Positions 1-20,143 of a stretch of 20,388 nucleotides of DNA are shown piece by piece. Position numbers and translations under genes: made by a program. A model generated the notes under the pieces. It saw only the letters and a program-made list of their open reading frames with translations. It was not told the origin of the DNA and did no database searches. Each line of letters starts with the position of its first letter. The first letter of the stretch is position 1. The stretch lies in the IMG/VR virus record IMGVR_UViG_2734482534_000001. One strand, 5' to 3'. Source of the DNA: a virus (lineage: Duplodnaviria; Heunggongvirae; Uroviricota; Caudoviricetes).

Positions 1-2452
<2,452 letters not shown>

Positions 2453-2512
2453 TCGTCATGCTCCATAAACGATAAAACCGCCCGGAGGCGATTTCACATA
2501 AAACATTTTGCA

Positions 2513-3184
2513 TCAGCGACCAATCACCACAACCTGACCACCGTCCCCTTCGTCTGCCGTGCTGATCTCCTGAGATACCACACGTGACCCCACGCGCATT
2601 TCACCATACAGAACAGGCATAACATTGCCCTGGGCAACCATGTTATCCAGTGAGGAGAAATAGGTGTTCTGCTTACCGTTATCCGTTGTCTGTGTGCGGG
2701 GAGTTCTGGCTTTCGGTGCCAGCATCTGAGCCACACCGCCGAGCACCATACTGGCACCGAGAGAAAACAGAATGCCGGTCATACCACCGGCACCAATGGC
2801 AGCCCCCCATGCTGCAAGGGTGGCTCCGGCGGTAAAGAATGATCCGGCAATGGCGGCTGCTCCCAGGACAATCTGGAATACACCACCTGACTTGGCCCCG
2901 GCGACTCTGGGAACAATATGAATCACAGCGCCGTCAGGCAGAGCCTCATGTAACTGTGCCGTTAATCCGGACGTGCTAACATCCTGCCCGGCAATACGCA
3001 CCTGATACCAGCCGTCGCTCAGCTTCTGACGAAACGCAGGGAGCTGTGTGGCCATCGCCCGGATGGCTTCGGCACCCGTTTTCACACGAAGGTCGATGCG
3101 GCGGCCAAATCGTTGCAAATCCCCGTAAAGGCAGATGCGTGCCATGCCCGGTGACGCCAGAGGGAGTGTGTGCGTCGCTGCCAT
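2513..3184 (-). CDS. I: Tail tip assembly protein I (223 aa, full length)
   Basis: ORF 2513..3184 (MAATHTLPLASPGMARICLYGDLQRFGRRIDL ... VVVIGR) matches lambda gpI in length and sequence; its start overlaps the 3' end of K by about 100 nt as in lambda. Confidence 0.92.
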   Translation of the reverse strand: MAATHTLPLASPGMARICLYGDLQRFGRRIDLRVKTGAEAIRAMATQLPAFRQKLSDGWYQVRIAGQDVSTSGLTAQLHEALPDGAVIHIVPRVAGAKSGGVFQIVLGAAAIAGSFFTAGATLAAWGAAIGAGGMTGILFSLGASMVLGGVAQMLAPKARTPRTQTTDNGKQNTYFSSLDNMVAQGNVMPVLYGEMRVGSRVVSQEISTADEGDGGQVVVIGR

Positions 3185-3269
3185 TTGTCGGTATACCTCT
3201 CTCGTTTGCTCAGTTGTTCAGGAATATGGTGCAGCAGCTCGCCGTCACCACAGTAAATGGCGGCATGAT
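3082..3269 (-). CDS. K: Tail tip assembly protein K, C-terminal fragment (5' end lost in N-run 3270-3519)
   Basis: Translation HAAIYCGDGELLHHIPEQLSKRERYTDKWQRRTHSLWRHRAW ... STFV then stop at 3082-3084 is the lambda gpK C-terminus; positioned immediately upstream of and overlapping I. Confidence 0.85.
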
Positions 3270-3519
3270 NNNNNNNNNNNNNNNNNNNNNNNNNNNNNNN
3301 NNNNNNNNNNNNNNNNNNNNNNNNNNNNNNNNNNNNNNNNNNNNNNNNNNNNNNNNNNNNNNNNNNNNNNNNNNNNNNNNNNNNNNNNNNNNNNNNNNNN
3401 NNNNNNNNNNNNNNNNNNNNNNNNNNNNNNNNNNNNNNNNNNNNNNNNNNNNNNNNNNNNNNNNNNNNNNNNNNNNNNNNNNNNNNNNNNNNNNNNNNNN
3501 NNNNNNNNNNNNNNNNNNN
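3270..3519. other. N-run (250 nt), gap between the K C-terminal fragment and the partial I copy
   Basis: Run of n characters. Confidence 0.9.
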
Positions 3520-3948
3520 ATTGCCCTGGGCAACCATGTTATCCAGTGAGGAGAAATACGTGTTTTGTTTGCCGTTATCCGTTGTCTGTGTACGGGGAGT
3601 TCTGGCTTTCGGTGCCAGCATCTGCGCCACACCACCAAGTACCATACTGGCACCGAGAGAAAACAGGATGCCGGTCATACCACCGGCCCCAATGGCTGCC
3701 CCCCATGCTGCAAGGGTGGCTCCGGCGGTAAAGAATGATCCGGCAATGGCGACTGCTCCCAGGACAATCTGGAATACGCCCCCTGACTTGGCCCCGGCGA
3801 CTCTGGGAACAATATGAATCACAGCGCCGTCAGGCAGAACCTCATGTAACTGCGCCGTCAATCCGGACGTGCTGACGTCCCGCCCGGAAATCCGTACCTG
3901 ATACCAGCCGTCGCTCAGTTTCTGACGAAACGCCGGGATCTGCATGGC
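3520..3948 (-). CDS. Second, divergent partial copy of tail assembly protein I (about residues 44-190), bounded by N-runs on both sides
   Basis: Translation AMQIPAFRQKLSDGWYQVRISGRDVSTSGLTAQLHEVLPDGAVIHIV ... DNMVAQGN parallels the full I copy at 2513-3184 but with substitutions (ISGRD vs IAGQD, HEVL vs HEAL, GAVAIAG vs GAAAIAG). Confidence 0.7.
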
Positions 3949-4198
3949 NNNNNNNNNNNNNNNNNNNNNNNNNNNNNNNNNNNNNNNNNNNNNNNNNNNN
4001 NNNNNNNNNNNNNNNNNNNNNNNNNNNNNNNNNNNNNNNNNNNNNNNNNNNNNNNNNNNNNNNNNNNNNNNNNNNNNNNNNNNNNNNNNNNNNNNNNNNN
4101 NNNNNNNNNNNNNNNNNNNNNNNNNNNNNNNNNNNNNNNNNNNNNNNNNNNNNNNNNNNNNNNNNNNNNNNNNNNNNNNNNNNNNNNNNNNNNNNNNN
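3949..4198. other. N-run (250 nt), gap between the partial I copy and the partial K copy
   Basis: Run of n characters. Confidence 0.9.
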
Positions 4199-4480
4199 TT
4201 GTGAATCGCCCCCCGGCAGACCAGCCACCACGGCAAATCACTCTGCACCTGCAGCCGCCGGTCGGCCTCACTCAGCCAGGGCAGACCACCGGGGTGGCTG
4301 TGGACCAGTGCCACAATCTCACCCTGCATCTCTGCCTGCAGCCAGTCTTCCGGCGACATACGGAAATACGCCTCCGGCTCACCGGAGATATTCACGCAGG
4401 GGAAATATCTTTCCCCCTCCGGCGTTCTTACCACGAAGCCGCACGACTCCGCTGGAGCACATCGCCCGGTTGTGCTGATG
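4199..4480 (-). CDS. Second, divergent partial copy of tail assembly protein K (N-terminal MPN/JAMM-like region), bounded by N-runs on both sides
   Basis: Translation ...CAPAESCGFVVRTPEGERYFPCVNISGEPEAYFRMSPEDWLQAEMQGEIVALVHSHPGGLPWLSEADRRLQVQSDLPWWLVCRGAIH parallels the K N-terminus at 4606-5099 with substitutions (EAYFRMSPED vs EDYFRMAPED, PWWLV vs PWLLV). Confidence 0.7.
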
Positions 4481-4605
4481 NNNNNNNNNNNNNNNNNNNN
4501 NNNNNNNNNNNNNNNNNNNNNNNNNNNNNNNNNNNNNNNNNNNNNNNNNNNNNNNNNNNNNNNNNNNNNNNNNNNNNNNNNNNNNNNNNNNNNNNNNNNN
4601 NNNNN
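4481..4605. other. N-run (125 nt), gap between the two K N-terminal copies
   Basis: Run of n characters. Confidence 0.9.
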
Positions 4606-5099
4606 ACCTGATACAGCCCTGTGGCCTCCAGATTATCCAGATAGAGATTCTGACCGTGACGCCACCAGTCATCCTCACGATGAAAATCCGGCATCTCAAT
4701 CCCCGCCAGATGATAAGCATCCCGGAACAGCGTGTAACAGTCCGTCACCCCGTGCTCAAAGCGCCGCCCGGTGAGATGCGGCACACAGCGGAACTTATGA
4801 ATCGCCCCCCGGCAGACCAGCAACCACGGCAAATCACTCTGCACCTGCAGCCGCCGGTCAGCCTCACTCAGCCAGGGCAGACCACCGGGGTGGCTGTGGA
4901 CCAGCGCCACAATCTCACCCTGCATTTCTGCCTGCAGCCAGTCCTCCGGAGCCATCCGGAAATAATCCTCCGGCTCACCGGAAATATTCACGCAGGGAAA
5001 ATATCTTTCCCCCTCCGGCGTTCTCACCACGAAGCCGCACGACTCCGCTGGCGCACATCGCCGGGCGTGCGCCAGAATCGCTGATTCTGTCTCTGTCAT
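4606..5099 (-). CDS. K: Tail tip assembly protein K, N-terminal 164 aa (3' end lost in N-run 4481-4605)
   Basis: Begins MTETESAILAHARRCAPAESCGFVVRTPEG five nt downstream of the L stop; contains the HSHPGG (JAMM-type) motif and the start of an NlpC/P60-like region; lambda gene order L then K. Confidence 0.85.
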
Positions 5100-5103
5100 G
5101 GGA

Positions 5104-5802
5104 TTACTGCGAAAGTTTGTTAATGGAAAGGAAGCCGCCAAAGTTGCCGACGTTATTGCGAAACTTACAGCCACTCAGGCATTTGCTGCATTTATCCTTC
5201 GTGATATCGGACGTTGGCTGGTCATATTCATCCGCGACCGCCGGACCGTGATAACCGCACTCATCGCCGCGATAGGTCCAGGTGCAGGTGTTGGCCAGCA
5301 TGATACGTCCCGGAAAAACAGCGCCGTCCGTTTCCGTCGGCGTGGACAGTACAAAAGAGGCACTCACCGCGCTCAGTTCGCTGCACTGCTCAATGCGCCA
5401 GCGGCTGATCACCTCCTGCTCCGGATCGGCGTCACTGTTTCCGTTGACGAAGTTCACCGCATCCAGAAAACGGGCGTAAACCTTACGCCGGACCACCGTT
5501 CCGCCGACCAGACTCTGTAGATCTTCCGCCATCCCGGTGACCATACCGTACAGGTTAGAAACCATCAGCGTGGGGCGCGTACTGGTGCCTTTGCCATTCA
5601 GTTCAAAACCACTCCCCTGAATGGGATACGGCTGATACTGTCGCCCCTGCCAGGTGACCGGCTCACCTTTTTCGTTCTGCTCATTACAGAAAAAATAACG
5701 TTCTCCACCGACCTCTGTCAGATCGATTTCCCAGAGCACCACGCTGGCCGACTGCTCCGCACGGGTGCATTCATTCAGTGTTTCCTGCCGGATATCCTGC
5801 AT
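5104..5802 (-). CDS. L: Tail assembly protein L (232 aa)
   Basis: ORF 5104..5802 (MQDIRQETLNECTRAEQSASVVLWEIDL...) matches lambda gpL; its ATG overlaps the M stop (TGATG on the coding strand). Confidence 0.94.
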   Translation of the reverse strand: MQDIRQETLNECTRAEQSASVVLWEIDLTEVGGERYFFCNEQNEKGEPVTWQGRQYQPYPIQGSGFELNGKGTSTRPTLMVSNLYGMVTGMAEDLQSLVGGTVVRRKVYARFLDAVNFVNGNSDADPEQEVISRWRIEQCSELSAVSASFVLSTPTETDGAVFPGRIMLANTCTWTYRGDECGYHGPAVADEYDQPTSDITKDKCSKCLSGCKFRNNVGNFGGFLSINKLSQ

Positions 5803-6131
5803 CAGTTCACCACCTGTTCAAACTCTGCGCTGAACTCAACACGCAGCATACTGACCCGCGACGACCATTTTGCGCAGGTCACCTTTATCTGCCGCCACTC
5901 ATAAGGCGGCGTCCACAGAAAGGCTTTCCAGCCCCCGTGCTCTTCCAGAAACGACTCCAGTACCATGGCCTCCTCACGGGGGACAGAAAGCGTCACGCTG
6001 TACGTTTTCAGGTTGGCATTCAGCCCGGCAGGCGCTCGCTGGGAATAGCCATCACCAAAGCGCACCTTTCTTACAGAAGGGGCCGAAGCCACATCCATAC
6101 CGGGTTTCACTTTCCAGCGGAAGGTTTTCAT
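5802..6131 (-). CDS. M: Tail assembly protein M (109 aa)
   Basis: ORF 5802..6131 (MKTFRWKVKPGMDVASAPSVRKVRFGDGYSQ...) matches lambda gpM; its start overlaps the H stop. Confidence 0.94.
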   Translation of the reverse strand: MKTFRWKVKPGMDVASAPSVRKVRFGDGYSQRAPAGLNANLKTYSVTLSVPREEAMVLESFLEEHGGWKAFLWTPPYEWRQIKVTCAKWSSRVSMLRVEFSAEFEQVVN

Positions 6132-8689
6132 CGTCCACCTCCGGAGAACAGGCCACCATCACGCATCTGTGTCTGAATTTCATCACGGGCACCCTTGCGG
6201 GCCATGTCATACACGGCCTTCATCATCTGTGGACCTGGCAGACCATTCGTACCGTCGTTCTGAATCACCACGTGATTGTTCTGATTAAAATTAATGCCTT
6301 CAGCCCGCCGCATCTGCGCCGGACTTCCGGCACCGCCCACATAACCACCTTCCGCATAGCCGCGCATCAGCCGGTAGAGATTCCCCACGCCAATCCGGCT
6401 GGTTGCCTCCTTCGTGAAGACAAATTCACCACGGTGAACAATCCCCGCTGGCTCATATTTGCCGCCGGTTCCCGTAAATCCCCCGGTTGCAAAATGGAAT
6501 TTCACCGCAGCGGCCTGAATGGCTGTACCACCTGACGCGGATGCGCCGCCACCAACAGCCCCGCCAATGGCGCTGCCGATACTCCCGACAATCCCCACCA
6601 TTGCCTGCTTAAGCAGAATTTCTGTCATCATGGACAGCACGGAGCGGGTGAAGCTGCGCCAGTTCTGTTCACTGCCGGTCAGCATCGCCGCCATATTCTG
6701 TGCAATACCATCAAAGGTCTGCGTGGCTGCACTTTTAACCTGTGACATACTGTCCGTGGCGCTCTCTTCCCACTCACTCCAGCCGGACTTCAGGCCTGCC
6801 ATCCAGCTCCCGCGAAGCTGGTCTTCAGCCGCCCAGGTCTTTTTCTGCTCTGACATGACGTTATTCAGCGCCAGAGGATTATCGCCATACTGTTCCTTCA
6901 GGCGCTGTTCCGTGGCTTCCCGCGCTGCCTGCCGGTCAGTCAGCCCCCGGTTTTTCGCATCAATGGCTGCCCGTTTTGCCCGTTGCTGCTGTGCGAATTT
7001 ATCCGCCTGCTGCGCCAGCGCATTCAGGTGCTCCTGATACGTAACCTTGTCACCAAGTGCAGCCAGCTGGCGTTTGTACTCCAGCGTCTCGTCTTTATGC
7101 GCCAGCAGGGATTTCTCCTGTGCGGACAGCTGGCGACGTTGTGCCGCCTCCTCCAGTACCGCGAACTGACTTTCTGCCTTCCACAAATCCCGGCGCTGCT
7201 GGCTGATTTTCTCATTCGCTCCGGCATGCTTCTCCAGCGTCCGGAGTTCTGCCTGAAGCGTCAGCAGGGCCGCATGAGCACTGTCTTCCTGACGATCGCC
7301 CGCATACACCTTCACGCCGGACTGTTTCGGCTTTTTCAGCGTCGCTTCATAATCCTTTTTCGCCGCCGCCATCAGCGTGTTGTAATCTGCCTGCAGGATT
7401 TTTCCGTCTTTCAGTGCCTTGTTCAGTTCTTCCTGACGGGCGGTATATTTCTCCAGCGGCGTCTGCAGCCGTTCGTAAGCCTTCTGCGCCTCTTCGGTAT
7501 ATTTCAGCCGTGACGCTTCGGTATCGCTCTGCTGCTGCGCATTTTTGTCCTGTTGACGCTGTTGATCTACCCTCTTTTGGGCTGCATCCCGCTCCAGGCG
7601 TTTTTTTTCACGATCATCCCAGTAACGCGCCCGTGCTTCATCGTTAACGAAATAATCATCCTTGCGCAGATTCCAGATGTCGTCTGCTTTCTTAAACGCA
7701 GCCTCTGCCTTAATCAGCATCTCCTGCGCGGTATCAGGACGACCAATATCCAGCACCGCATCCCACATGGATTTGAATGCACGTGCAGTCCTGTCTGCCC
7801 AGGTCTCCAGCGTGCCCATGTTCTCTTTCAGGCGGCGGGTCTGGTCATCAAACCCTTTCGTTGCGGCCTCGTTCGCCGCCTGCAATGCCCCGGCTTCATC
7901 GCCGGAACGCTGCAACTGAGCAACATACGCAATCTGCTCCGCCGTCACGTTATGGAACTGGCGTGCCATCGCCGTCAGCCCCGACGTCGGGTCTGTGGTC
8001 AGCTTCCCGAAGGCTTCAGCGACCTTGTCCACCTCCACGCCGGATGCATAGGAGAAACGCGCCACACTCTGGCTGATGGACGCAATCTGAGCCTCACCGC
8101 TTACCCCCGCCTTAACCAGTGCGCTGAGTGACTCGCTGGTCTGGTTAAACGTCAGCCCTGCCGCCTGCCCGGCTCTGGACAGGACCAGCATACGATCTGC
8201 CGTCAGTCCCGCCTGATTACCGGAAAGGACCAGCGTTTTGTTGAAATCGGACAGGGTTGAGTTGCCCTGATACCAGGCATACGCCAGCGCACCGGTCGCC
8301 ACCGCCAGCGAGGTGGCCCCCACCATCGGCAGGGTGATCGCGCCGGCAAGCCCCCTGAACATGGGGATCATCCCGCCGAAGGAGTCCTTAACCTGACCAC
8401 CCTGTTGCAGCAGGATCAGCCAGGGATTCTGCCCCCCTGCAAGCTGCGTGGCCACGTCGGTGAACTGTGCAGGCAGCATACGCATGGCGGCTTTATACTG
8501 CCCGACGGAAATCCCCGCTTTCTGTGCAGCCAGCGCCTGTCGGCTCAGCGACTGTTCAACGACTGCCGCTGTTTTTTTCGCATCACTTTCCGTACCGGAA
8601 AAATGACGCCTGACTCTGGCCATCTGCTCGTCAAATCTGGCCGCATCCAGACTCAAATCAACGACCAGATCGCCTACCGGTTCAGCCAT
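6128..8689 (-). CDS. H: Tail tape measure protein H (853 aa)
   Basis: ORF 6128..8689, 853 aa, begins MAEPVGDLVVDLSLDAARFDEQMARV; coiled-coil-rich middle and Gly-rich C-terminal region as in lambda gpH; same length as lambda gpH as recalled. Confidence 0.94.
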   Translation of the reverse strand: MAEPVGDLVVDLSLDAARFDEQMARVRRHFSGTESDAKKTAAVVEQSLSRQALAAQKAGISVGQYKAAMRMLPAQFTDVATQLAGGQNPWLILLQQGGQVKDSFGGMIPMFRGLAGAITLPMVGATSLAVATGALAYAWYQGNSTLSDFNKTLVLSGNQAGLTADRMLVLSRAGQAAGLTFNQTSESLSALVKAGVSGEAQIASISQSVARFSYASGVEVDKVAEAFGKLTTDPTSGLTAMARQFHNVTAEQIAYVAQLQRSGDEAGALQAANEAATKGFDDQTRRLKENMGTLETWADRTARAFKSMWDAVLDIGRPDTAQEMLIKAEAAFKKADDIWNLRKDDYFVNDEARARYWDDREKKRLERDAAQKRVDQQRQQDKNAQQQSDTEASRLKYTEEAQKAYERLQTPLEKYTARQEELNKALKDGKILQADYNTLMAAAKKDYEATLKKPKQSGVKVYAGDRQEDSAHAALLTLQAELRTLEKHAGANEKISQQRRDLWKAESQFAVLEEAAQRRQLSAQEKSLLAHKDETLEYKRQLAALGDKVTYQEHLNALAQQADKFAQQQRAKRAAIDAKNRGLTDRQAAREATEQRLKEQYGDNPLALNNVMSEQKKTWAAEDQLRGSWMAGLKSGWSEWEESATDSMSQVKSAATQTFDGIAQNMAAMLTGSEQNWRSFTRSVLSMMTEILLKQAMVGIVGSIGSAIGGAVGGGASASGGTAIQAAAVKFHFATGGFTGTGGKYEPAGIVHRGEFVFTKEATSRIGVGNLYRLMRGYAEGGYVGGAGSPAQMRRAEGINFNQNNHVVIQNDGTNGLPGPQMMKAVYDMARKGARDEIQTQMRDGGLFSGGGR

Positions 8690-9116
8690 ACCGGACTCCT
8701 CCTGCGATCCCTTCTGATACTGTCATCAGCATTACGTCATCCTCCGTCATGTCCGCCACATCCGGGGAAGCGGGGATAACTTCATTCCCGTCCGGGCCAA
8801 AGCGGACACCTCCGGCAAGCCCTGCCGCTTTCTGCATCAGCACATCATCTTCAGGCTCTTCGTCAGCCTCGCGCCGGTTCAGCAGACTGAAATCCAGCGG
8901 ATGCATCTCCGGATCGCTGAAAAACAGGCTGAGCACGGTGTACGTCAGCCCGGAAAAGTGCATATCCAGCAGAACATCATGAAAATAATGGGTACTGTAA
9001 AAGCGGTGCCAGTCGGCATACTCCGTGGATGACATCCCGGCAAGCATGGCGCGCCAGTCGGGTCGCCCCATCTCACGCGCCAGTTTCAGGGCAAAACTCA
9101 GCTCACCGTCGAACAC
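8682..9116 (-). CDS. T: Tail assembly chaperone T reading frame, expressed as the G-T fusion by -1 programmed frameshift from G
   Basis: ORF 8682..9116 (…FDGELSFALKLAREMGRPDWRAMLAGMSSTEYADWHRFY...) matches lambda gpT; it has no independent ATG and lies in the -1 frame relative to the G 3' end. Confidence 0.9.
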   Translation of the reverse strand: MFDGELSFALKLAREMGRPDWRAMLAGMSSTEYADWHRFYSTHYFHDVLLDMHFSGLTYTVLSLFFSDPEMHPLDFSLLNRREADEEPEDDVLMQKAAGLAGGVRFGPDGNEVIPASPDVADMTEDDVMLMTVSEGIAGGVRYG

Positions 9117-9520
9117 TTTCCCGCAGAAACAGGCTCTGCAGGCCCGGCGTCCTCTGCCTGTTCAGGAGCATCATTCACCACAAACTCATACATACCGGAC
9201 AGCCGGTACACCACGTTTTCAGCATGAGAAATTGCCTCTGTGGGCCAGGTGGTAAGCACTTCCTGCTCAATCTGTTTAACGGCTTCATTCATGGACGGCA
9301 TCTGCGTCTTCTTCGGATGGTTATGCCACAGGGACATCGCAACCACAAAAGCGCCGGTTCTGATGGCGTCTTCCACAGTAAACTTCCGGTTGCTGTCTGA
9401 CTCCGCCTGTTCTGCCTGCCGTTTCATCAGGTCGAGATGCTCAATACGCTGCAGGGCTGACAGTTCAGAAAGCGTGACGGTCACACCGTTATGTTCAAAT
9501 GATTCGGTTTTCAGGAACAT
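9098..9520 (-). CDS. G: Tail assembly chaperone G (140 aa)
   Basis: ORF 9098..9520 (MFLKTESFEHNGVTVTLSELSALQRIEHLDLMKRQAEQ...) matches lambda gpG; the slippery heptamer lies near its 3' end. Confidence 0.94.
   Translation of the reverse strand: MFLKTESFEHNGVTVTLSELSALQRIEHLDLMKRQAEQAESDSNRKFTVEDAIRTGAFVVAMSLWHNHPKKTQMPSMNEAVKQIEQEVLTTWPTEAISHAENVVYRLSGMYEFVVNDAPEQAEDAGPAEPVSAGKCSTVS
9116..9122 (-). other. -1 programmed ribosomal frameshift slippery heptamer G GGA AAG (G to G-T fusion)
   Basis: Plus strand reads ctttccc at 9116-9122, i.e. GGGAAAG on the coding strand, in the G frame as gcG GGA AAG. Shifting -1 here gives GKVFDGELSFALKLAREMG, which is the T frame. Confidence 0.85.
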
Positions 9521-9535
9521 CGCTGACTCTCCGGA

Positions 9536-10276
9536 TTAACTGGCGGTGACGTTGATTTCTGCAACCGCAGCAAACTCACCATTACCAGATACGACCGGAA
9601 TGTTGACCTTGCCTGCAGCAACACCTTTCACGGTGATGGTCATACCACTGACCGACACGGTGGCTTTTGTTTTATCCGCAGACACCGCACGGAAGCTCTT
9701 GTCGGTTGCGCCATCCGGCTGGAATGCCACGGTCAGCGTGGTGCTCTGCCCTTTCACTACGGAAGCACTGGCGGGTGTCACCGTCATGCCGGTCGTCGCC
9801 GTCACCGTGCTGCGATCTTCTGCCATCGACGGACGTCCCACATTGGTGACCTTCACCGTGCGGGTAATCACCTCCTTCGCCGTCACCGCCTTACCGATAC
9901 TGCTGACCCAGCCACGGAACACATCGACCGTGCCGTTCGGGAAGCGGATTTTATAGGCACGGGTATCACCTTCATTAAACCACGCCAGCAGCGCCTGCTG
10001 CCCCTGCTCTCCGGGCATCCACGCCAGCGTGAAGCTGGTATCTCCGGCAGATTTCTGCCCCTGCCCGGTCGCAGTCCAGTCTGCATCTTCATCATCGAGA
10101 TAGCTGTCGTCATAGGACTCAGCGGTCAGTTCGCCGGGCGTCAGGTCTTTAACTTTTGCCAGACGCGACCAGTCAACGTCTGAAAGCGGGTTCGCATAAG
10201 GGTCACCGCTCCCCTTATAAACCCACAGGGTGGTCCCGGCACCTTTCACCGGCATTGTAGGATTTGGTACAGGCAT
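9536..10276 (-). CDS. V: Major tail tube protein V (246 aa)
   Basis: Within ORF 9536..10306 the lambda gpV N-terminus [22 protein letters not shown] starts at the ATG at 10274-10276, preceded by a GAGGA Shine-Dalgarno sequence; C-terminal Ig-like region is present. Confidence 0.93.
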
Positions 10277-10283
10277 AGCGTCC

Positions 10284-10679
10284 TCACATTTCATAGATAA
10301 TGACATAAGTCAGATCGGCTGAACTCCACAGGCCCGCATCATCGTCGCGCCGGTAGTCATAGCCGCTGGCCACCATACTGGTGATCAAATCTGACAGTGC
10401 CGGGATATCGCTCATCACAGGATAAATCCGGGACTCCATCCACGAATCCAGCTCTGAATCCGGCACCTGAGCAGGCAGGAAAACTTCAATATGCAGCTCC
10501 GCCTGCCAGGTATCGCTGTCCAGCTCTTCGCCCGTGTATTCAGCGCCGGTGAGATAAACGGCAATTGCCGGAAAATCTTCCTCATCAAAAACAGCGGGGC
10601 GACCATCAAAAAGCGTCGCCCCGGTGTCATGCTTCTCCAGTGCATCCAGTACGGCTGCACGGAGTTCAGTATGTTTCAT
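10284..10679 (-). CDS. U: Tail terminator protein U (131 aa)
   Basis: ORF 10284..10679 ([36 protein letters not shown]...) matches lambda gpU. Confidence 0.94.
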
Positions 10680-11254
10680 CGCTTTATTACCATTCTCAGT
10701 TGATGCTGCAGCGCATAGCCCAGCTCTTTCGGAAGACGTTCACGCCGTATCCGTTCAATATTCTGTTTAAACGCCGTGGTCAGCGGCACCGCCATCGGGA
10801 TTTTCACCACATCAATGGGGTAACGGTTTTTCCCGGCCACACGCTGCATAACATGCCACCGGCCGTTTTTCAGTTGCTGAATAAACGCGCCGGGAATACG
10901 ACGGTTACCCACCACAAGCACGCTGCCGCCACCTTTCAGGGATGAACGCTGCCCCTTTTTATGACGCCTGCGGCGGGACAGGACAACCCGCGCATTACCC
11001 AGCTTGATTACGGGCAAATCCCCCCGGTTAACTTTGATTCTGGCCTGCGGATTTTTGACCGTGGCCCTTTTCAGCCTGGCCCTTTCCTTTACCAGTTTCC
11101 GGCGTACCTTTGTCTCACGGGCAACCTGTGACGCAGACTGCGATATCGCGGATGAAGCAACGCGGTTAATGGCCATTGCGGCGGCACCGGGCACCGCCGT
11201 TTTGCTGATACGGCTGAGGTTTTCAACGGCCTGCTCAAGACCTTTTATGGCCAT
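10676..11254 (-). CDS. Z: Tail completion protein Z (192 aa)
   Basis: ORF 10676..11254 (MAIKGLEQAVENLSRISKTAVPGAAAMAINRVASS...) matches lambda gpZ; its stop overlaps the U start. Confidence 0.94.
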   Translation of the reverse strand: MAIKGLEQAVENLSRISKTAVPGAAAMAINRVASSAISQSASQVARETKVRRKLVKERARLKRATVKNPQARIKVNRGDLPVIKLGNARVVLSRRRRHKKGQRSSLKGGGSVLVVGNRRIPGAFIQQLKNGRWHVMQRVAGKNRYPIDVVKIPMAVPLTTAFKQNIERIRRERLPKELGYALQHQLRMVIKR

Positions 11255-11265
11255 ACATCCCCCTT

Positions 11266-11619
11266 TCAGCGGCGACGGTTAACGGCAGGCGGTACGCCCC
11301 GTCCAAGCCAGAGATGACAACTTCCGCCATCATCCGGCGAAACCCGATCTACCCAGAAATTTTCCTCACCGATGGTCAGCGTGTCTCCACGCCGCAGCTG
11401 CCGCACCTCATCAGTCCGGACAAACAGGGACGGGCTGGAGCCTTCAACGCGCACGCCCTGTCCGGCATAGCTGATATTTTCAGGGTCATCAAAAACACCA
11501 CGTATCACCGCACCTGACTGCTCACCGGATGTCATGGTGGCTGACGTTCCCATGTACCCGCGTATCGTTTCATCGGCGCGGGCAATGGCAGCATCGAACA
11601 GGTTATCGAAATCAGCCAC
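11266..11619 (-). CDS. FII: Head-tail joining protein FII (117 aa)
   Basis: ORF 11266..11619 (MADFDNLFDAAIARADETIRGYMGTSATMTSGEQ...) matches lambda gpFII. Confidence 0.94.
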   Translation of the reverse strand: MADFDNLFDAAIARADETIRGYMGTSATMTSGEQSGAVIRGVFDDPENISYAGQGVRVEGSSPSLFVRTDEVRQLRRGDTLTIGEENFWVDRVSPDDGGSCHLWLGRGVPPAVNRRR

Positions 11620-11630
11620 AGCGCCTCCCG

Positions 11631-12029
11631 TTATTGCATTCTGGCCAGGCCGCGCTCTGTCATTTCGGCTGCCACACCGGCAGAGACACGAAACGCCGTT
11701 CCCGGCAGCACAAATGCCACAGGTTTATCCCGCGTGGCGTGAAGTGCATCAGTATGCAGCGTCACCAGTGCCACGACCGTGACCAGTTCAGCCGTATCCT
11801 GAATCACGGTATCCGGCTGCGCTGATACCACCTCATTTTCATGCCCGGTCAGCACATTTTCCCGGCTGAGAGGGGTGTCCTGACCGGCAGTTTCATCCGT
11901 GTCATCAAGCTCTTCTTCCAGCTCTGCCACACGAAGCGCCAGTTCTTCTTTCGTTCCCGTCAAACTGACATCGCGGTTCAATTGCTCACCCAGCTCCTGA
12001 AGACGGGCAATCAGTTCATCTTTCGTCAT
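11631..12029 (-). CDS. FI: DNA packaging protein FI (132 aa)
   Basis: Within ORF 11631..12068 the lambda gpFI N-terminus MTKDELIARL starts at the ATG at 12027-12029; acidic middle region (EELDDTDETAGQD) as in lambda. Confidence 0.92.
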   Translation of the reverse strand: MTKDELIARLQELGEQLNRDVSLTGTKEELALRVAELEEELDDTDETAGQDTPLSRENVLTGHENEVVSAQPDTVIQDTAELVTVVALVTLHTDALHATRDKPVAFVLPGTAFRVSAGVAAEMTERGLARMQ

Positions 12030-12070
12030 GAACTCCTCCACAGAGAGAAAATGGCCCCGAAGGGCCATGA

Positions 12071-13096
12071 TTACGCCAGTTGAACGGACACGAACTCATC
12101 AGGATCAGCCAGCAGCATCAGCGGTGCTGACTGAATCATGGTGAACTCACGCGCCGGATCGCCGGTGGTCACCCAGTTTTTCGGGTAACGGGCAGAAGCG
12201 TTAATGCCTTCGCGCTGTGCGTCCGCATCCTGAATGCAGCCATAGGTGCGCAGACCGCGAGCCTGAGTGTTCCCCAGCACCATCGTGTTGTCCGGCAGGA
12301 AGTTCTTTTTGACGCCGTTTTCCACGTACTGTCCGGAATACACGACGATGGCCACATCGCCATACATTCCCTTATAGGACACCGCTTTGCCCAGGTCTTT
12401 TACCGCTGTCTCCAGCTCGGAATGAGAGCCGCGACGGGTATCCAGCTTCTCCTTGACGGCTTTGAAGGAACGGAACAGCGCCCAGCCTTTCGGGTCAAAC
12501 ACGATGATATTCACCACACCGCTGGCGTTCAGCGCGTAGGCTTCGATATCGTCGGTCGGGTCATACGTGGACTTGTCACGCTTGCTCCACTCCGTGACGC
12601 CGGACTGTGTGATGTTGTTCGCCGCACTGCGGCCCATATCCACCTCAACCGGATCGAAGGCTTCACCGGTCATGGTGTATTTGCCCTTGAGCACGGCAGA
12701 AACTGCCTGCATCTCTTCGACCTGAGCAATGGCCAGCTCTTCGTCACGCATGTTCTGCATGATGATGCGACGGCGGCGGTAAGCCGGGTCCGCCAGATTC
12801 TGCGGATCTTCATCCGGCAGGCGACGCAGGGTCATCTGCGGATTCACCTCATGCTTGGGTTTGACATATCCCGGCGTAAATTCAGAGGTGGAGCCGCCAC
12901 GGGAACGGATAACCTCACCGGAAACAATCGGCGAAACGTACAGCGCCATGTTTACCAGTCCCGGAATTTGTGAGAGATAGACTTTCTCCGTAGTGAAGGG
13001 ATAGCTCTCACGGAAAAAGAGACGCAGAAACAGCGGATCAAACTTAAATTTCTGCTCATTTGCCGCCAGCAGCTGGGCGGTTGTGTACATCGACAT
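12071..13096 (-). CDS. E: Major capsid protein E (341 aa)
   Basis: Within ORF 12071..13123 the lambda gpE N-terminus MSMYTTAQLLAANEQKFKFDPLFLRLFF starts at the ATG at 13094-13096; HK97-fold major capsid protein of lambda. Confidence 0.94.
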   Translation of the reverse strand: MSMYTTAQLLAANEQKFKFDPLFLRLFFRESYPFTTEKVYLSQIPGLVNMALYVSPIVSGEVIRSRGGSTSEFTPGYVKPKHEVNPQMTLRRLPDEDPQNLADPAYRRRRIIMQNMRDEELAIAQVEEMQAVSAVLKGKYTMTGEAFDPVEVDMGRSAANNITQSGVTEWSKRDKSTYDPTDDIEAYALNASGVVNIIVFDPKGWALFRSFKAVKEKLDTRRGSHSELETAVKDLGKAVSYKGMYGDVAIVVYSGQYVENGVKKNFLPDNTMVLGNTQARGLRTYGCIQDADAQREGINASARYPKNWVTTGDPAREFTMIQSAPLMLLADPDEFVSVQLA

Positions 13097-13151
13097 AAAA
13101 AAATCCCGTAAAAAAAGCCACACAGGCGGCCTTTAGTGATGAAGGGTAAAG

Positions 13152-13484
13152 TTAAACGATGCTGATTGCCGTTCCGGCAAACACGGTCCGTTTTTTCGTC
13201 TCGTCGCTGGCAGCCTCCGGCCAGAGCACATCCTCATAACGGAACGTGCCGGACTTGTAGAACGTCAGTGTGGTGCTGGTCTGGTCAGCAGCAACCGCAA
13301 GAATGCCAACGGCAGCACCGTCGGTGGTGCCATCCCACGCAACCAGCTTACGGGTGGAGGTGTCCAGCATCAGCGGGGTCATTGCAGGCGCTTTCGCACT
13401 CAATCCGCCGGGCGCGGTTGCGGTATGAGCCGGGTCACTATTGCCCAGCGGCTGGTAATGGGTAAAGGTTTCTTTGCTCGTCAT
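13152..13484 (-). CDS. D: Capsid decoration (head stabilisation) protein D (110 aa)
   Basis: Within ORF 13152..13490 the lambda gpD N-terminus [12 protein letters not shown] starts at the ATG at 13482-13484; ends ...FAGTAISIV. Confidence 0.94.
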
Positions 13485-13493
13485 AAACATCCC

Positions 13494-14099
13494 TTACACT
13501 GGTGTGTTCAGCAAATCGTTAACGGCATCAGATGCCGGGTTACCTGCAGCCAGCGGTGCCGGTGCCCCCTGCATCAGACGATCCAGCGCAGTGTCACTGC
13601 GCGTCTGTGCACTCTGTGGTGCTGCGGCCAGAATACGGCGGGCCGTTTCCACGGTCATACCGGGGGTTTCGGCCAGCACGCGTGCCTGTTCTTCGCGTCC
13701 GTGAGCCTCCTCACAGTTGAGGATCCCCATAATGCGACTGTTTTCTGCCGCAACCGCTGCGGTGATCTGCGCGTTCACGTCCGGCTGCGCCGCGCTGGCG
13801 TTCTCGCCCTCCGTCGCTTGCACCACGCCAGTAACGTCAGCCTGCGAAGCAGTGGCTGAAACAGTTGTTGATTGAGTCTCTTTGGTCATTCGCCCTCCTG
13901 AGAGACGGGATTTACGTGCATCCAGTGCATCACGCATGACGGTGATCGCATCGGTACTGTTAACAAGTTCATCAGCCAGTCCGGCATCAATGGCCTCCTG
14001 ACCGCTGTACACTGCAGCCTCGGTATCCAGCACAGCCTGCACGGACAGGCCGGTATATGCCGACACCTTCTGTGCAAACATCCGGCGGGTTGCATCCAT
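13494..14099 (-). CDS. Nu3: Scaffolding protein Nu3 (201 aa), in-frame internal start within C
   Basis: Internal ATG at 14097-14099 begins MDATRRMFAQKVSAYTGL..., sharing frame and stop with C; in lambda Nu3 is the C-terminal 201 aa of the C reading frame (recalled). Confidence 0.8.
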   Translation of the reverse strand: MDATRRMFAQKVSAYTGLSVQAVLDTEAAVYSGQEAIDAGLADELVNSTDAITVMRDALDARKSRLSGGRMTKETQSTTVSATASQADVTGVVQATEGENASAAQPDVNAQITAAVAAENSRIMGILNCEEAHGREEQARVLAETPGMTVETARRILAAAPQSAQTRSDTALDRLMQGAPAPLAAGNPASDAVNDLLNTPV

Positions 14100-14793
14100 C
14101 CGGGACTGCAATGTTTCCCGGACATCATCCGGTAGATGGCTGTAGGGGTTGCCATCCACCTTATGGCTGCCGCTGTAAATCAGCGTGATTTCCACGCCCT
14201 GTTTCTCCAGTGCAGCGCCGTAATTACTGTGAGCCATCATGACGCCGATGGAGCCTGTCCGGGCGGTCTGCGTGACCAGACGCCGGGAGGCGGCACTGGC
14301 AAGCAGCTGACCTGCGCTGCAGTTCATGTCATTGGCCAGCGCCCATACCGGCTTTATGTCACGCACACGGGCGATGATGTCAGCGCAGTCAAATGCTCCC
14401 GCCACCATTCCGCCCGGTGTGTCCATATCGAGCAGAATGCCGTCCACCATCGGGTCGCTGGCAGCCTGTTGCAGACGGGCGATAATGCCGTTGTAACCGG
14501 TCATCCCCGAGTACGGCTGCAGCGCCCGCGTCCGGCTGACCAGCGTGCCGGACACCGGCAGCACGGCGATGCCGTTCATTACCTGATAACTGCGGGCCTG
14601 TCGTGGTCCGTCATCATCACCGGATAACGCCAGCGCCGCGGGTGCCTCTCCGGCAGTCAGGCTGTCGCCGGATACTGCATCCGTCAGGCAGCTGATCCCA
14701 AGCTGGCCTGCAAGCGCACAAAAGAAAACCCGCGCATAGGCGGGTTCAAGCATCAGCGGCTCATTAAAAGCCATGCTGGCAATATGCGGGAGA

Positions 14794-14813
<20 letters not shown>
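13494..14813 (-). CDS. C: Head maturation protease / minor capsid protein C (439 aa, S49/ClpP-like), apparent GTG start
   Basis: ORF 13494..14948 contains the lambda gpC sequence from VTAELRNLPHIASMAFNEPLMLEPAY; the codon at 14811-14813 is GTG, 14 nt after the B stop. The upstream 45 codons of the open frame overlap B and are probably untranslated. Confidence 0.88.
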
Positions 14814-18507
<3,694 letters not shown>

Positions 18508-18533
<26 letters not shown>

Positions 18534-19053
18534 TCAGCAACCCCGGTATCAGTTCATCCAGCGCGGCTGCTTTGTTCATGGCTTTGATGATATCCCGTTT
18601 CAGGAAATCAACATGTCGGTTTTCCAGTTCCGGAAAACGCCGCTGCACCGACAGGGGGATCCCGTCGAGAATACTGGCAATTTCACCTGCGATCCGCGAC
18701 AGCACGAAAGTACAGAATGCGGTTTCCACCACTTCAGCGGAGTCTCTGGCATTTTTCAGCTCCTGTGCGTCGGCCTGCGCACGCGTAAGTCGATGGCGTT
18801 CGTACTCAATAGTCCCTGGCTGGAGATCTGTCTCGCTGGCCTGCCGCAGTTCTTCAACTTCCCGGCGCAGCTTTTCGTTCTCAATTTCAGCATCCCTTTC
18901 GGCATACCATCTTATAACGGCGGCAGAGTCATAAAGCACCTCATTACCCTTGCCACCGCCTCGCAGAACGGGCATTCCCTGTTCCTGCCAGTTCTGAATG
19001 GTACGGATACTCGCACCGAAAATGTCAGCCAGCTGCTTTTTGTTGACTTCCAT
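18508..19053 (-). CDS. Nu1: Terminase small subunit Nu1 (181 aa)
   Basis: ORF 18508..19053 (MEVNKKQLADIFGASIRTIQNWQEQGMPVLRGGGKGNEVLYDSAAVIRWYAERDAEIENEKLRREVEEL...) matches lambda Nu1, with its N-terminal winged-HTH region; ATG lies about 178 bp from the cosN 12-mer as in lambda. Confidence 0.95.
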
Positions 19054-19441: not shown

Positions 19442-19675
19442 ATGTCAACGAAGAACAGAACCCGCAGAACAACAACCCGCAACATCCGCTTTCCTAACCA
19501 AATGATTGAACAAATTAACATCGCTCTTGTTCAAAAAGGGTCCGGGAATTTCTCAGCCTGGGTCATTGAAGCCTGCCGCCGGAGACTGTGCTCAGAAAAA
19601 AGAGTTTCGCCTGAAGCAAACAAAGAAAAGAGTGACATTACTGAATTGCTCAGAAAACAGGTTAGACCAGATTGA
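19442..19675 (+). CDS. Small basic hypothetical protein (77 aa), possible ribbon-helix-helix (Arc/CopG-like) DNA-binding fold
   Basis: ORF 19442..19675; Arg/Thr-rich N-terminus, then NIRFPNQMIEQINIALVQKGSGNFSAWVIEACRRRL, which resembles a beta-strand/helix/helix RHH pattern. Weak Shine-Dalgarno sequence, AT-rich context, opposite orientation to the terminase genes. Fold assignment is by eye only. Confidence 0.5.
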   Translation: MSTKNRTRRTTTRNIRFPNQMIEQINIALVQKGSGNFSAWVIEACRRRLCSEKRVSPEANKEKSDITELLRKQVRPD

Positions 19676-19732
19676 AGCAATTTAGATAATCGTGCAGACT
19701 ACGCCCCCTCATATCACATGGAAGGTACTACA

Positions 19733-20143
19733 ATGGCTCAGGTTGCCATTTTTAAACAAATATTCGATAAAGTGCGAAATAATTTAAACTATCACTGGTT
19801 TTATTCTGAACTAAAACGTCACAATGTCTCACATTACATTTACTATTTAGCCACAGAGAATATTCATCTTGTTCTTGAAAACGATAATACGGTTTTAATA
19901 AAAGGACAGGGTAAGGTTGTAAATGTAAGATTTTCAAAAAATAAATGCCTTATAGAAGCCACCTTAAAAGGATTCAAATCAGGAGAGTTATCATTTTACG
20001 AATACAGGAAAAATCTTGCTACAGCAGGGGTTTTCAGATGGATTACAAATATCCACGAAAACAAAAGGTATTACTATACCTTTGATAATTCATTACTCTT
20101 TACTGAGAACATACAGAACACTACACAAATATTTCCGCACTAA
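19733..20143 (+). CDS. AT-rich accessory (moron-type) gene, 136 aa hypothetical protein; possibly DUF1398/YbcV-like (unverified)
   Basis: ORF 19718..20143; the ATG at 19733 is preceded by GGAAGG at a suitable distance, so this is the likely start. GC content by eye is roughly one third, against over one half in the structural genes. Position (cos-proximal, opposite strand to Nu1) and size match the ybcV-type gene slot of lambdoid prophages as recalled; two Tyr-rich segments ([17 protein letters not shown]) suggest an internal repeat. Confidence 0.6.

Follow-up and report, generated by a model that had tools for sequence, protein, structure and literature searches.

Interleaved fragments of tail genes K and I in a lambda-like prophage scaffold as a probable assembly artefact of two alleles

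Gene content of the window and the pieces between L and I

The window, meaning here the whole stretch of 20 388 nt that was analysed (IMG/VR record IMGVR_UViG_2734482534_000001), carries on its minus strand the late region of a lambda-like prophage, with its head and tail genes. The positions of its genes, gene pieces and runs of N are given in Table 1. Gene K was numbered from the ATG at 5099 over a length of 744 nt, which places the start of I, at 3184, on K nt 642 and gives a K/I overlap of 103 nt.

Table 1. Genes, gene fragments and N-runs of the window, from the start of the late region to its end. K and I coordinates are nucleotides of the respective gene.
Feature	Position in window	Strand	Description
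Nu1	18508-19053	-	
Large terminase	16608-18533	-	
Portal gene	~14.8-16.4 kb	-	Interrupted by N-run 15232-15534
N-run, 303, inside portal gene	15232-15534		290 nt there in closed relative
H	6128-8689	-	Tape-measure protein, 853 aa
M	5802-6131	-	
L	5104-5802	-	Minor tail protein, 232 aa; protein identical to that of closed relative
Fragment A	5099-4606	-	K nt 1-494, JAB/MPN domain; allele 2 (E. coli type)
N-run, 125	4481-4605		Scaffold gap
Fragment B, 5' tip, 25 nt	4480-4456	-	Equals allele-2 K nt 503-527
Fragment B, body	4466-4199	-	K nt 38-305; allele 1 (native)
N-run, 250	3949-4198		Scaffold gap; differing alleles on its two sides
Fragment C	3948-3520	-	I nt 133-561, partial; allele 2
N-run, 250	3270-3519		Between fragments C and D
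Fragment D	3269-3082	-	K nt 557-744, NlpC/P60 end; allele 1
I, intact	2513-3184	-	ORF of 223 aa; allele 1
J	From 2452 down to window start	-	Interrupted by N-run 832-1081
N-run, 250, inside J	832-1081		258 nt there in closed relative

Fragment A is the terminal part of a long contig of 10.6 kb (4606-15231), and fragment D runs directly into I and then J. Fragment B (4480-4199) aligned to nt 35-305 of the neighbouring K copy with 94.1% identity over 271 nt (E=1e-119), and fragment C aligned to the intact I of the window (2624-3052) with 93.2% identity over 429 nt. Judged from these alignments, the similarities of the extra pieces to their neighbours lie far beyond chance. The N-run map, the alignments and the Pfam matches confirmed the order and coordinates of the pieces from L to I that an earlier note on this DNA had proposed, and its description of the extra fragments as paralogous and not identical to their neighbours holds at the identities just given.

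Domain content was consistent with these assignments. The Pfam family Prok-JAB was found in fragment A (E=1.6e-14) and in fragment B (E=1.2e-10), and both the intact I (E=3.4e-27) and fragment C (E=2.9e-11) matched Lambda_tail_I (PF06805). The NlpC/P60 end in fragment D gave a weak match under the Pfam cut-off (E=1.2e-3) because the piece is short, at only 61 aa. At the same locus in closed genomes, K carries both PF14464 and PF00877. The locus accordingly has what is expected of a gpK-type gene, an MPN/JAB N-terminal and an NlpC/P60 C-terminal domain directly after L, and of gpI, a Lambda_tail_I domain in a gene that overlaps the end of K and precedes J.

Fragment C (I nt 133-561) and the contig that carries fragment D, with all of I, share I coordinates, so the printed order is impossible for a single molecule. 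The earlier claim that the order is not colinear was borne out in this respect.

Single-copy K and I in related prophages

A closed relative, chromosome CP104423.1, was found via its identical 853-aa tape-measure protein H, a very common exact sequence whose source names are Shigella sonnei or Shigella; the K and I proteins of the CP104423.1 prophage are likewise named Shigella sonnei. This chromosome was 100% identical to the window over positions 1-831, 1082-3269 and 15535-18702, and over 5330-15231 it differed by a single synonymous SNP, at 10419. CP104423.1 has one copy each of L, K (247 aa), I and J in a contiguous block, and the equivalents of window positions 3269 and 4606 lie 62 nt apart, as against 1336 nt in the window. 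From the L stop to the J start, CP104423.1 measures 1378 nt and the window, read literally, ~2.65 kb.

The same arrangement was observed more widely. Contigs with the identical H protein were read in 34 cases, 31 of which share the neighbouring gene set of CP104423.1; the remaining three are sister drafts, two of which cross one K and one I while the third, L005, stops inside K. All 45 contigs read with an identical L protein showed L, K, I and J without extra pieces, with a K of 247 aa (called as 199 aa in one contig). Every phage record matching window positions 2400-6600 spans this query in ~2927 nt. The duplicated K/I arrangement was not found in any relative that was read through the region, each of which has one K and one I.

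Within closed E. coli genomes, K-homologous DNA occurred at a median of 3 places per genome, with a maximum of 15. The presence of multiple K copies per genome, together with the L005 contig that ends in K, marks this segment as a recurrent repeat at which assemblies habitually break.

Phasing of the pieces into two alleles

The pieces were found to represent two alleles that are ~94% identical and can be told apart at 96 positions from the K start to early J. The body of fragment B and fragment D belong to allele 1, of Shigella type, and both are 100% identical to CP104423.1; for fragment B this holds over its nt 15-282, with a sole mismatch, at 4467, located at the chimeric junction described below. 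Fragments A and C belong to allele 2, of E. coli type, at 99.4-100% identity. Fragment A was 99.4-99.6% identical to E. coli OkiPb01701 as against 96.4% to the Shigella-type K, and fragment A together with the tail of L was 99.6% identical to one prophage in closed E. coli genomes such as NZ_AP042598.1 and NZ_CP027355.1. Fragment C was 100% identical to that same prophage in these genomes, and likewise to the I gene of E. coli OkiPb01701. In the closed E. coli genomes the A- and C-type pieces are colinear, with C exactly 279 nt downstream of A, and in CP104423.1 the spacing from B to D is 251 nt. All of the Shigella-type loci that were read carry allele 1.

The pieces therefore phase into haplotypes, each of which is colinear and single-copy elsewhere, as is expected for mis-scaffolding. 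One colinear molecule cannot be written for the copies in the window, in which the alleles alternate 2-1-2-1 and the coordinates of C and D overlap. This phasing also changes which K piece is to be regarded as native: the presence of a piece beside L and of a second, orphan piece stands as first described, whereas their status is reversed, fragment A carrying the foreign allele and positions 4199-4466 of fragment B the native one.

The long contig itself carries both alleles. It differs from CP104423.1 at 23 positions, 22 of which fall within 4713-5329, in the N-terminal part of K and the final third of L, and fragment A holds 18 of the 23. In L, the SNPs at 5329, 5326 and 5206 and a 1-nt indel at 5106 are of the allele-2 type. 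The DNA of L is allele 1 at L nt 81-285 and allele 2 from L nt 474 on, with the switch located within a stretch of 188 nt that is identical in both alleles (window ~5330-5517). This identical stretch is a place where either the assembler or a real crossover could switch from one allele to the other.

A single natural recombinant K, joining the N-terminus of A to the C-terminus of D, was also considered and was rejected, as the hybrid K protein was absent from a collection of 15 billion proteins. A pure allele-2 K with the exact N-terminus of A was present in that collection, in E. coli.

Lengths of the N-runs

In both J and the portal gene the reading frame is unequal across the N-run that interrupts the gene, and the true lengths at these two sites are 258 and 290 nt in the closed relative. 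This prophage is also present in a sister draft, CWWG01000057.1, which has runs of 250 N at other places, one of which replaces 251 real nucleotides. Taken together, the true lengths, the broken frames and the 250-N runs of the sister draft indicate that the runs are scaffold gaps of stereotyped, approximate length and not masks over finished sequence. The paper describing the Sanger assembly pipeline states that gaps of unknown size are inserted; the recurrent length of 250 N is not explained there (PMC5320598).

The N-runs between L and I are similarly unreliable as distances. The run at 4481-4605 would equal just 8 nt (K nt 495-502) if the tip of fragment B continues fragment A, and the run at 3270-3519 represents no real distance, because the pieces that it links, C and D, overlap in gene coordinates. 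The extra pieces are bounded by gaps of unreal length, which is again the pattern expected for mis-scaffolding. All transitions from one copy to another occur across N-runs, with the exception of the 25-nt tip of fragment B, which forms a junction private to this scaffold.

Mis-scaffolding of allelic contigs

The extra K and I pieces are best explained as an assembly artefact of a short-read draft that contained two alleles, and not as a real duplication; we put the probability of this reading at about 0.9. The true order in the prophage is almost certainly L, one K, one I and J. The reading that the earlier note preferred, in which the scaffold combines short repeat contigs of several lambdoid prophages, is upheld by the single-copy closed relative, the two-allele phasing and the unreal N-runs. 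For the alternative that it allowed for, a genuine tandem duplication or recombination scar, a single supporting observation is left, the 25-nt chimeric tip of fragment B.

The following sequence of events probably produced the window, where the behaviour of the assembler and the physical source of allele 2 are what we infer. On this view the window is one scaffold of a draft assembled from short reads, and its lambda-like prophage is of a kind characteristic of Shigella sonnei. The sequenced DNA would have contained two divergent L-K-I alleles, of which allele 1 is native. An assembler unable to thread both alleles would have produced short, allele-specific contigs, and its long contig would have crossed from allele 1 to allele 2 inside the identical stretch of L. 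A greedy scaffolder would then have lined up fragments A, B, C and D, which are of alleles 2, 1, 2 and 1 respectively, and filled the spaces with placeholder N-runs, although window positions 4606 and 3269 would truly be separated by ~62 nt of K (nt 495-556). At odds with a plain two-copy de Bruijn model, the contigs do not end cleanly where long stretches of shared sequence begin or stop.

Source of allele 2

The most likely source of allele 2 is a further lambdoid prophage carried by the same isolate. Several K copies per genome and the break of L005 inside K make a second resident prophage the simplest source. The exact allele-2 K and I proteins carry the names E. coli or Enterobacteriaceae and the allele-1 proteins the name Shigella sonnei, and a second resident prophage would be less secure for this lineage given that the allele-2 names are not Shigella. 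Three E. coli contigs with the pure allele-2 K protein were examined as donors and rejected, since their DNA differs elsewhere (95.6-97% identity for fragment C).

Within the same overall explanation, a less likely origin, to which we would give a clear minority of the weight, is contaminating E. coli DNA or a mixed culture, from which fragments A and C and the 5' tip of B, all of allele 2, would have been drawn into the scaffold by homology. The division of protein names between the alleles fits this origin, as does the presence of allele 1 in every Shigella-type locus read, and at 282 and 429 nt the orphan pieces have the very small size that thin coverage would predict. However, the long and presumably well-covered contig is itself allele 2 for ~720 nt (5329-4606), and it is the native allele that was left as an orphan, which would be unexpected were allele 2 the minor component. 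The sister assembly L005, which also breaks in K, suggests a resident K repeat, and a genome normally has several lambdoid copies of K. Whichever source allele 2 has, the interleaving is an artefact.

The chimeric tip of fragment B

The piece that had been described as a second K N-terminus is indeed K sequence, but K nt 1-37 are absent from it and the piece is itself chimeric. Its first 25 nt are identical to allele-2 K nt 503-527, from which allele 1 departs at K nt 505, 507, 510 and 513. The tip thus picks up allele-2 K 8 nt past the end of fragment A and then jumps to K nt 49. The join is the 11-mer GGCGATGTGCT, present both at K nt 517-527 and at allele-1 K nt 38-48, and after it allele-1 K nt 49-305 follow out of frame. 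Among 5,426 closed E. coli genomes, no match covered the first 11-14 nt of fragment B. The junction k-mer, searched as the exact 34-mer CAGCACAACCGGGCGATGTGCTCCAGCGGAGTCG and as a degenerate 29-mer, was absent from genome, viral and metagenome contig collections, which hold no Shigella drafts, so that this absence is weak evidence for that lineage.

The tip counts against a simple collapse of repeats, as it needs an extra false join, chimeric reads or a real junction. GapFiller closes a gap once the sequences extended from its two sides share an overlap of 10 nt or more and the resulting length agrees with the estimate for that gap (PMC3446322). The authors of a widely used pipeline that relies on SSPACE and GapFiller describe both tools as greedy and warn of false joins (PMC5320598). 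The overlap rule and this warning together make a technical origin of the junction plausible, and the junction is probably a false join. The 125 N still present beside the tip are unexplained by one gap-closure event.

Alternatively, the tip could record a real rearrangement, in which an allele-2 patch entered through a homologous crossover in L and an illegitimate crossover at the 11-nt repeat GGCGATGTGCT. The product would read L, then K'(1-527) running out of frame into K(49-744), then I and J. Part of K would be duplicated in direct orientation, its first copy would be truncated, and only fragment C would be misplaced. Two observations agree with this scheme: the tip begins 8 nt past the end of A and joins at a perfect repeat, and the B-to-D spacing of 251 nt in the relative is near the length of one 250-N run. 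We nevertheless consider a real rearrangement very improbable. The junction was absent from the 5,426 closed E. coli genomes and from the genome, viral and metagenome contig sets, and K is intact in all relatives read. The scheme still requires one misplaced contig, C, which itself shows that an allele-2 K-I copy was in the read set, and the 125-N run between A and the tip must be wrong. The overlap closure of GapFiller (at least 10 nt; PMC3446322) offers a purely technical route to the same join, and with its parts out of frame an essential tail gene would be broken. If real, the B junction, formed through an 11-nt microhomology, would be a partial duplication private to this isolate, with the first K copy inactivated in a prophage tail module that is otherwise intact.

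Least credible, to the point of being negligible, is that the N-runs mask finished sequence at its true length and that the 1336-nt interval and the extra pieces are physically real: the J and portal runs do come near to the true lengths (250 vs 258 and 303 vs 290), but they are not equal to them and both shift the frame of an otherwise intact gene, colinearity of K and I needs 8 nt for 125 N and 468 nt for 250 N, and the last 250-N run joins pieces that overlap in coordinates, so that length-preserving masks are refuted by the frame and coordinate tests.

Implications and comparison with known systems

With mis-scaffolding of allelic contigs as the preferred reading, the value of the finding lies in quality control of a draft scaffold and not in new biology. 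Gene counts, pseudogene calls and duplication calls would be wrong in this region of the draft, and the L-K segment of the long contig is an allele chimera that is unfit for phage typing or recombination analysis. The window can also serve as a worked example of how two prophage tail modules of ~94% identity are mishandled by short-read assembly and scaffolding.

Compared with the L-K-I-J block of lambda, in which gpK combines MPN/JAB and NlpC/P60 domains and gpI has the Lambda_tail_I domain, the prophage has these genes in the same order, with the same domains and the same K/I overlap of 103 nt. It is biologically no different from lambda in this block; only the interleaved pieces set the window apart, and these would be a product of assembly.

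Repeat-induced mis-scaffolding, as produced with SSPACE and GapFiller, shares with the window the presence of short allele-specific contigs between stereotyped N-runs, and the long contig of the window likewise switches allele in an identical stretch. The 11-nt join of fragment B satisfies the 10-nt minimum overlap of GapFiller. Unlike the result of a single GapFiller closure, the window keeps a run of 125 N beside the chimeric tip.

Lambdoid prophages of E. coli and Shigella are mosaics in which segments of tail genes are swapped by recombination. Two K-I alleles of ~94% identity with long identical flanks, as found here, are the substrate for such recombination, and in principle the change of allele within L could be a real event. 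To our knowledge, each gene in real lambdoid mosaics is single-copy and in register. In this the window is unlike real mosaics, as gaps lie between its pieces and their coordinates overlap.

Allele switch and junctions in the L–K region

The 10.6-kb contig, which ends in the first K piece (fragment A), shared the sequence of the Shigella-type prophage up to L nt 285 and then switched allele: the stretch between L nt 474 and K nt 494 (window 4606–5329) was of the E. coli type. The switch point was located inside 188 nt common to both alleles (window 5330–5517, L nt 286–473). The L protein sequence was unaffected by the switch, and a 1-nt deletion in the L–K spacer at window 5106 was the E. coli-type (allele-2) form.

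The best allele-2 match was carried by the closed genome of E. coli OkiPb01701 (L006). An IS421 (IS4-like) insertion was observed to split the tape-measure gene in this genome (L006 1303–5213), which makes that prophage defective.

For fragment B, the second K piece, the 25-nt tip of allele-2 origin was joined to K nt 49 at an 11-nt repeat, GGCGATGTGCT. This junction was both chimeric and private, and may derive from false gap closure, from chimeric reads or from a real junction. A contig of this prophage from a further short-read assembly (L005, CATNON010000099.1) stops within K, at nt 240, a pattern suggesting that contigs of this lineage habitually break at K, as at a repeat.

Gap lengths and gene calls

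The N-runs inside J and the portal gene differed in length from the sequence they stand for, shifting the frame, and both genes would be wrongly called as split or truncated. Runs of 250 N accounted for six of the eight seen in the window and in L003 (CWWG01000057.1), a sister draft carrying this prophage, counting as 250 the third L003 run, of which the locus end leaves 242 N; the real lengths there were 251–258 nt. The recurrent 250 N resembles a gap size that was rounded, or set by default, in some assembly pipeline.

Coordinates of gaps, open reading frames and other features
Feature	Location	Strand	Description
N-run inside J	window 832–1081		stands for 258 real nt; frame shifted
N-run inside portal gene	window 15232–15534		stands for 290 real nt; frame shifted
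N-runs of L003	CWWG01000057.1 15478–15727, 20406–20655, 22321–22562		exactly 250 N; positions differ from those in the window
Fragment B tip	window 4456–4480		25 nt; equals allele-2 K nt 503–527
DUF3950 ORF	within window 19442–20143	+	77 aa
DUF1398 ORF	within window 19442–20143	+	141 aa
Locus L002	CP104423.1 1291486–1314047		closed relative with the same prophage

Prophage type and distribution

Past Nu1 and the cos end, small plus-strand ORFs carrying DUF3950 and DUF1398 domains were present, which are typical lambdoid accessory genes. Among the J genes of 5,426 closed E. coli genomes, the best match to J of the window prophage was at most 97.7 % identical. The exact tape-measure protein was found in 6744 indexed blocks of the assembly collection. 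Taken over the whole window, the prophage is the common lambdoid prophage of the Shigella sonnei type.
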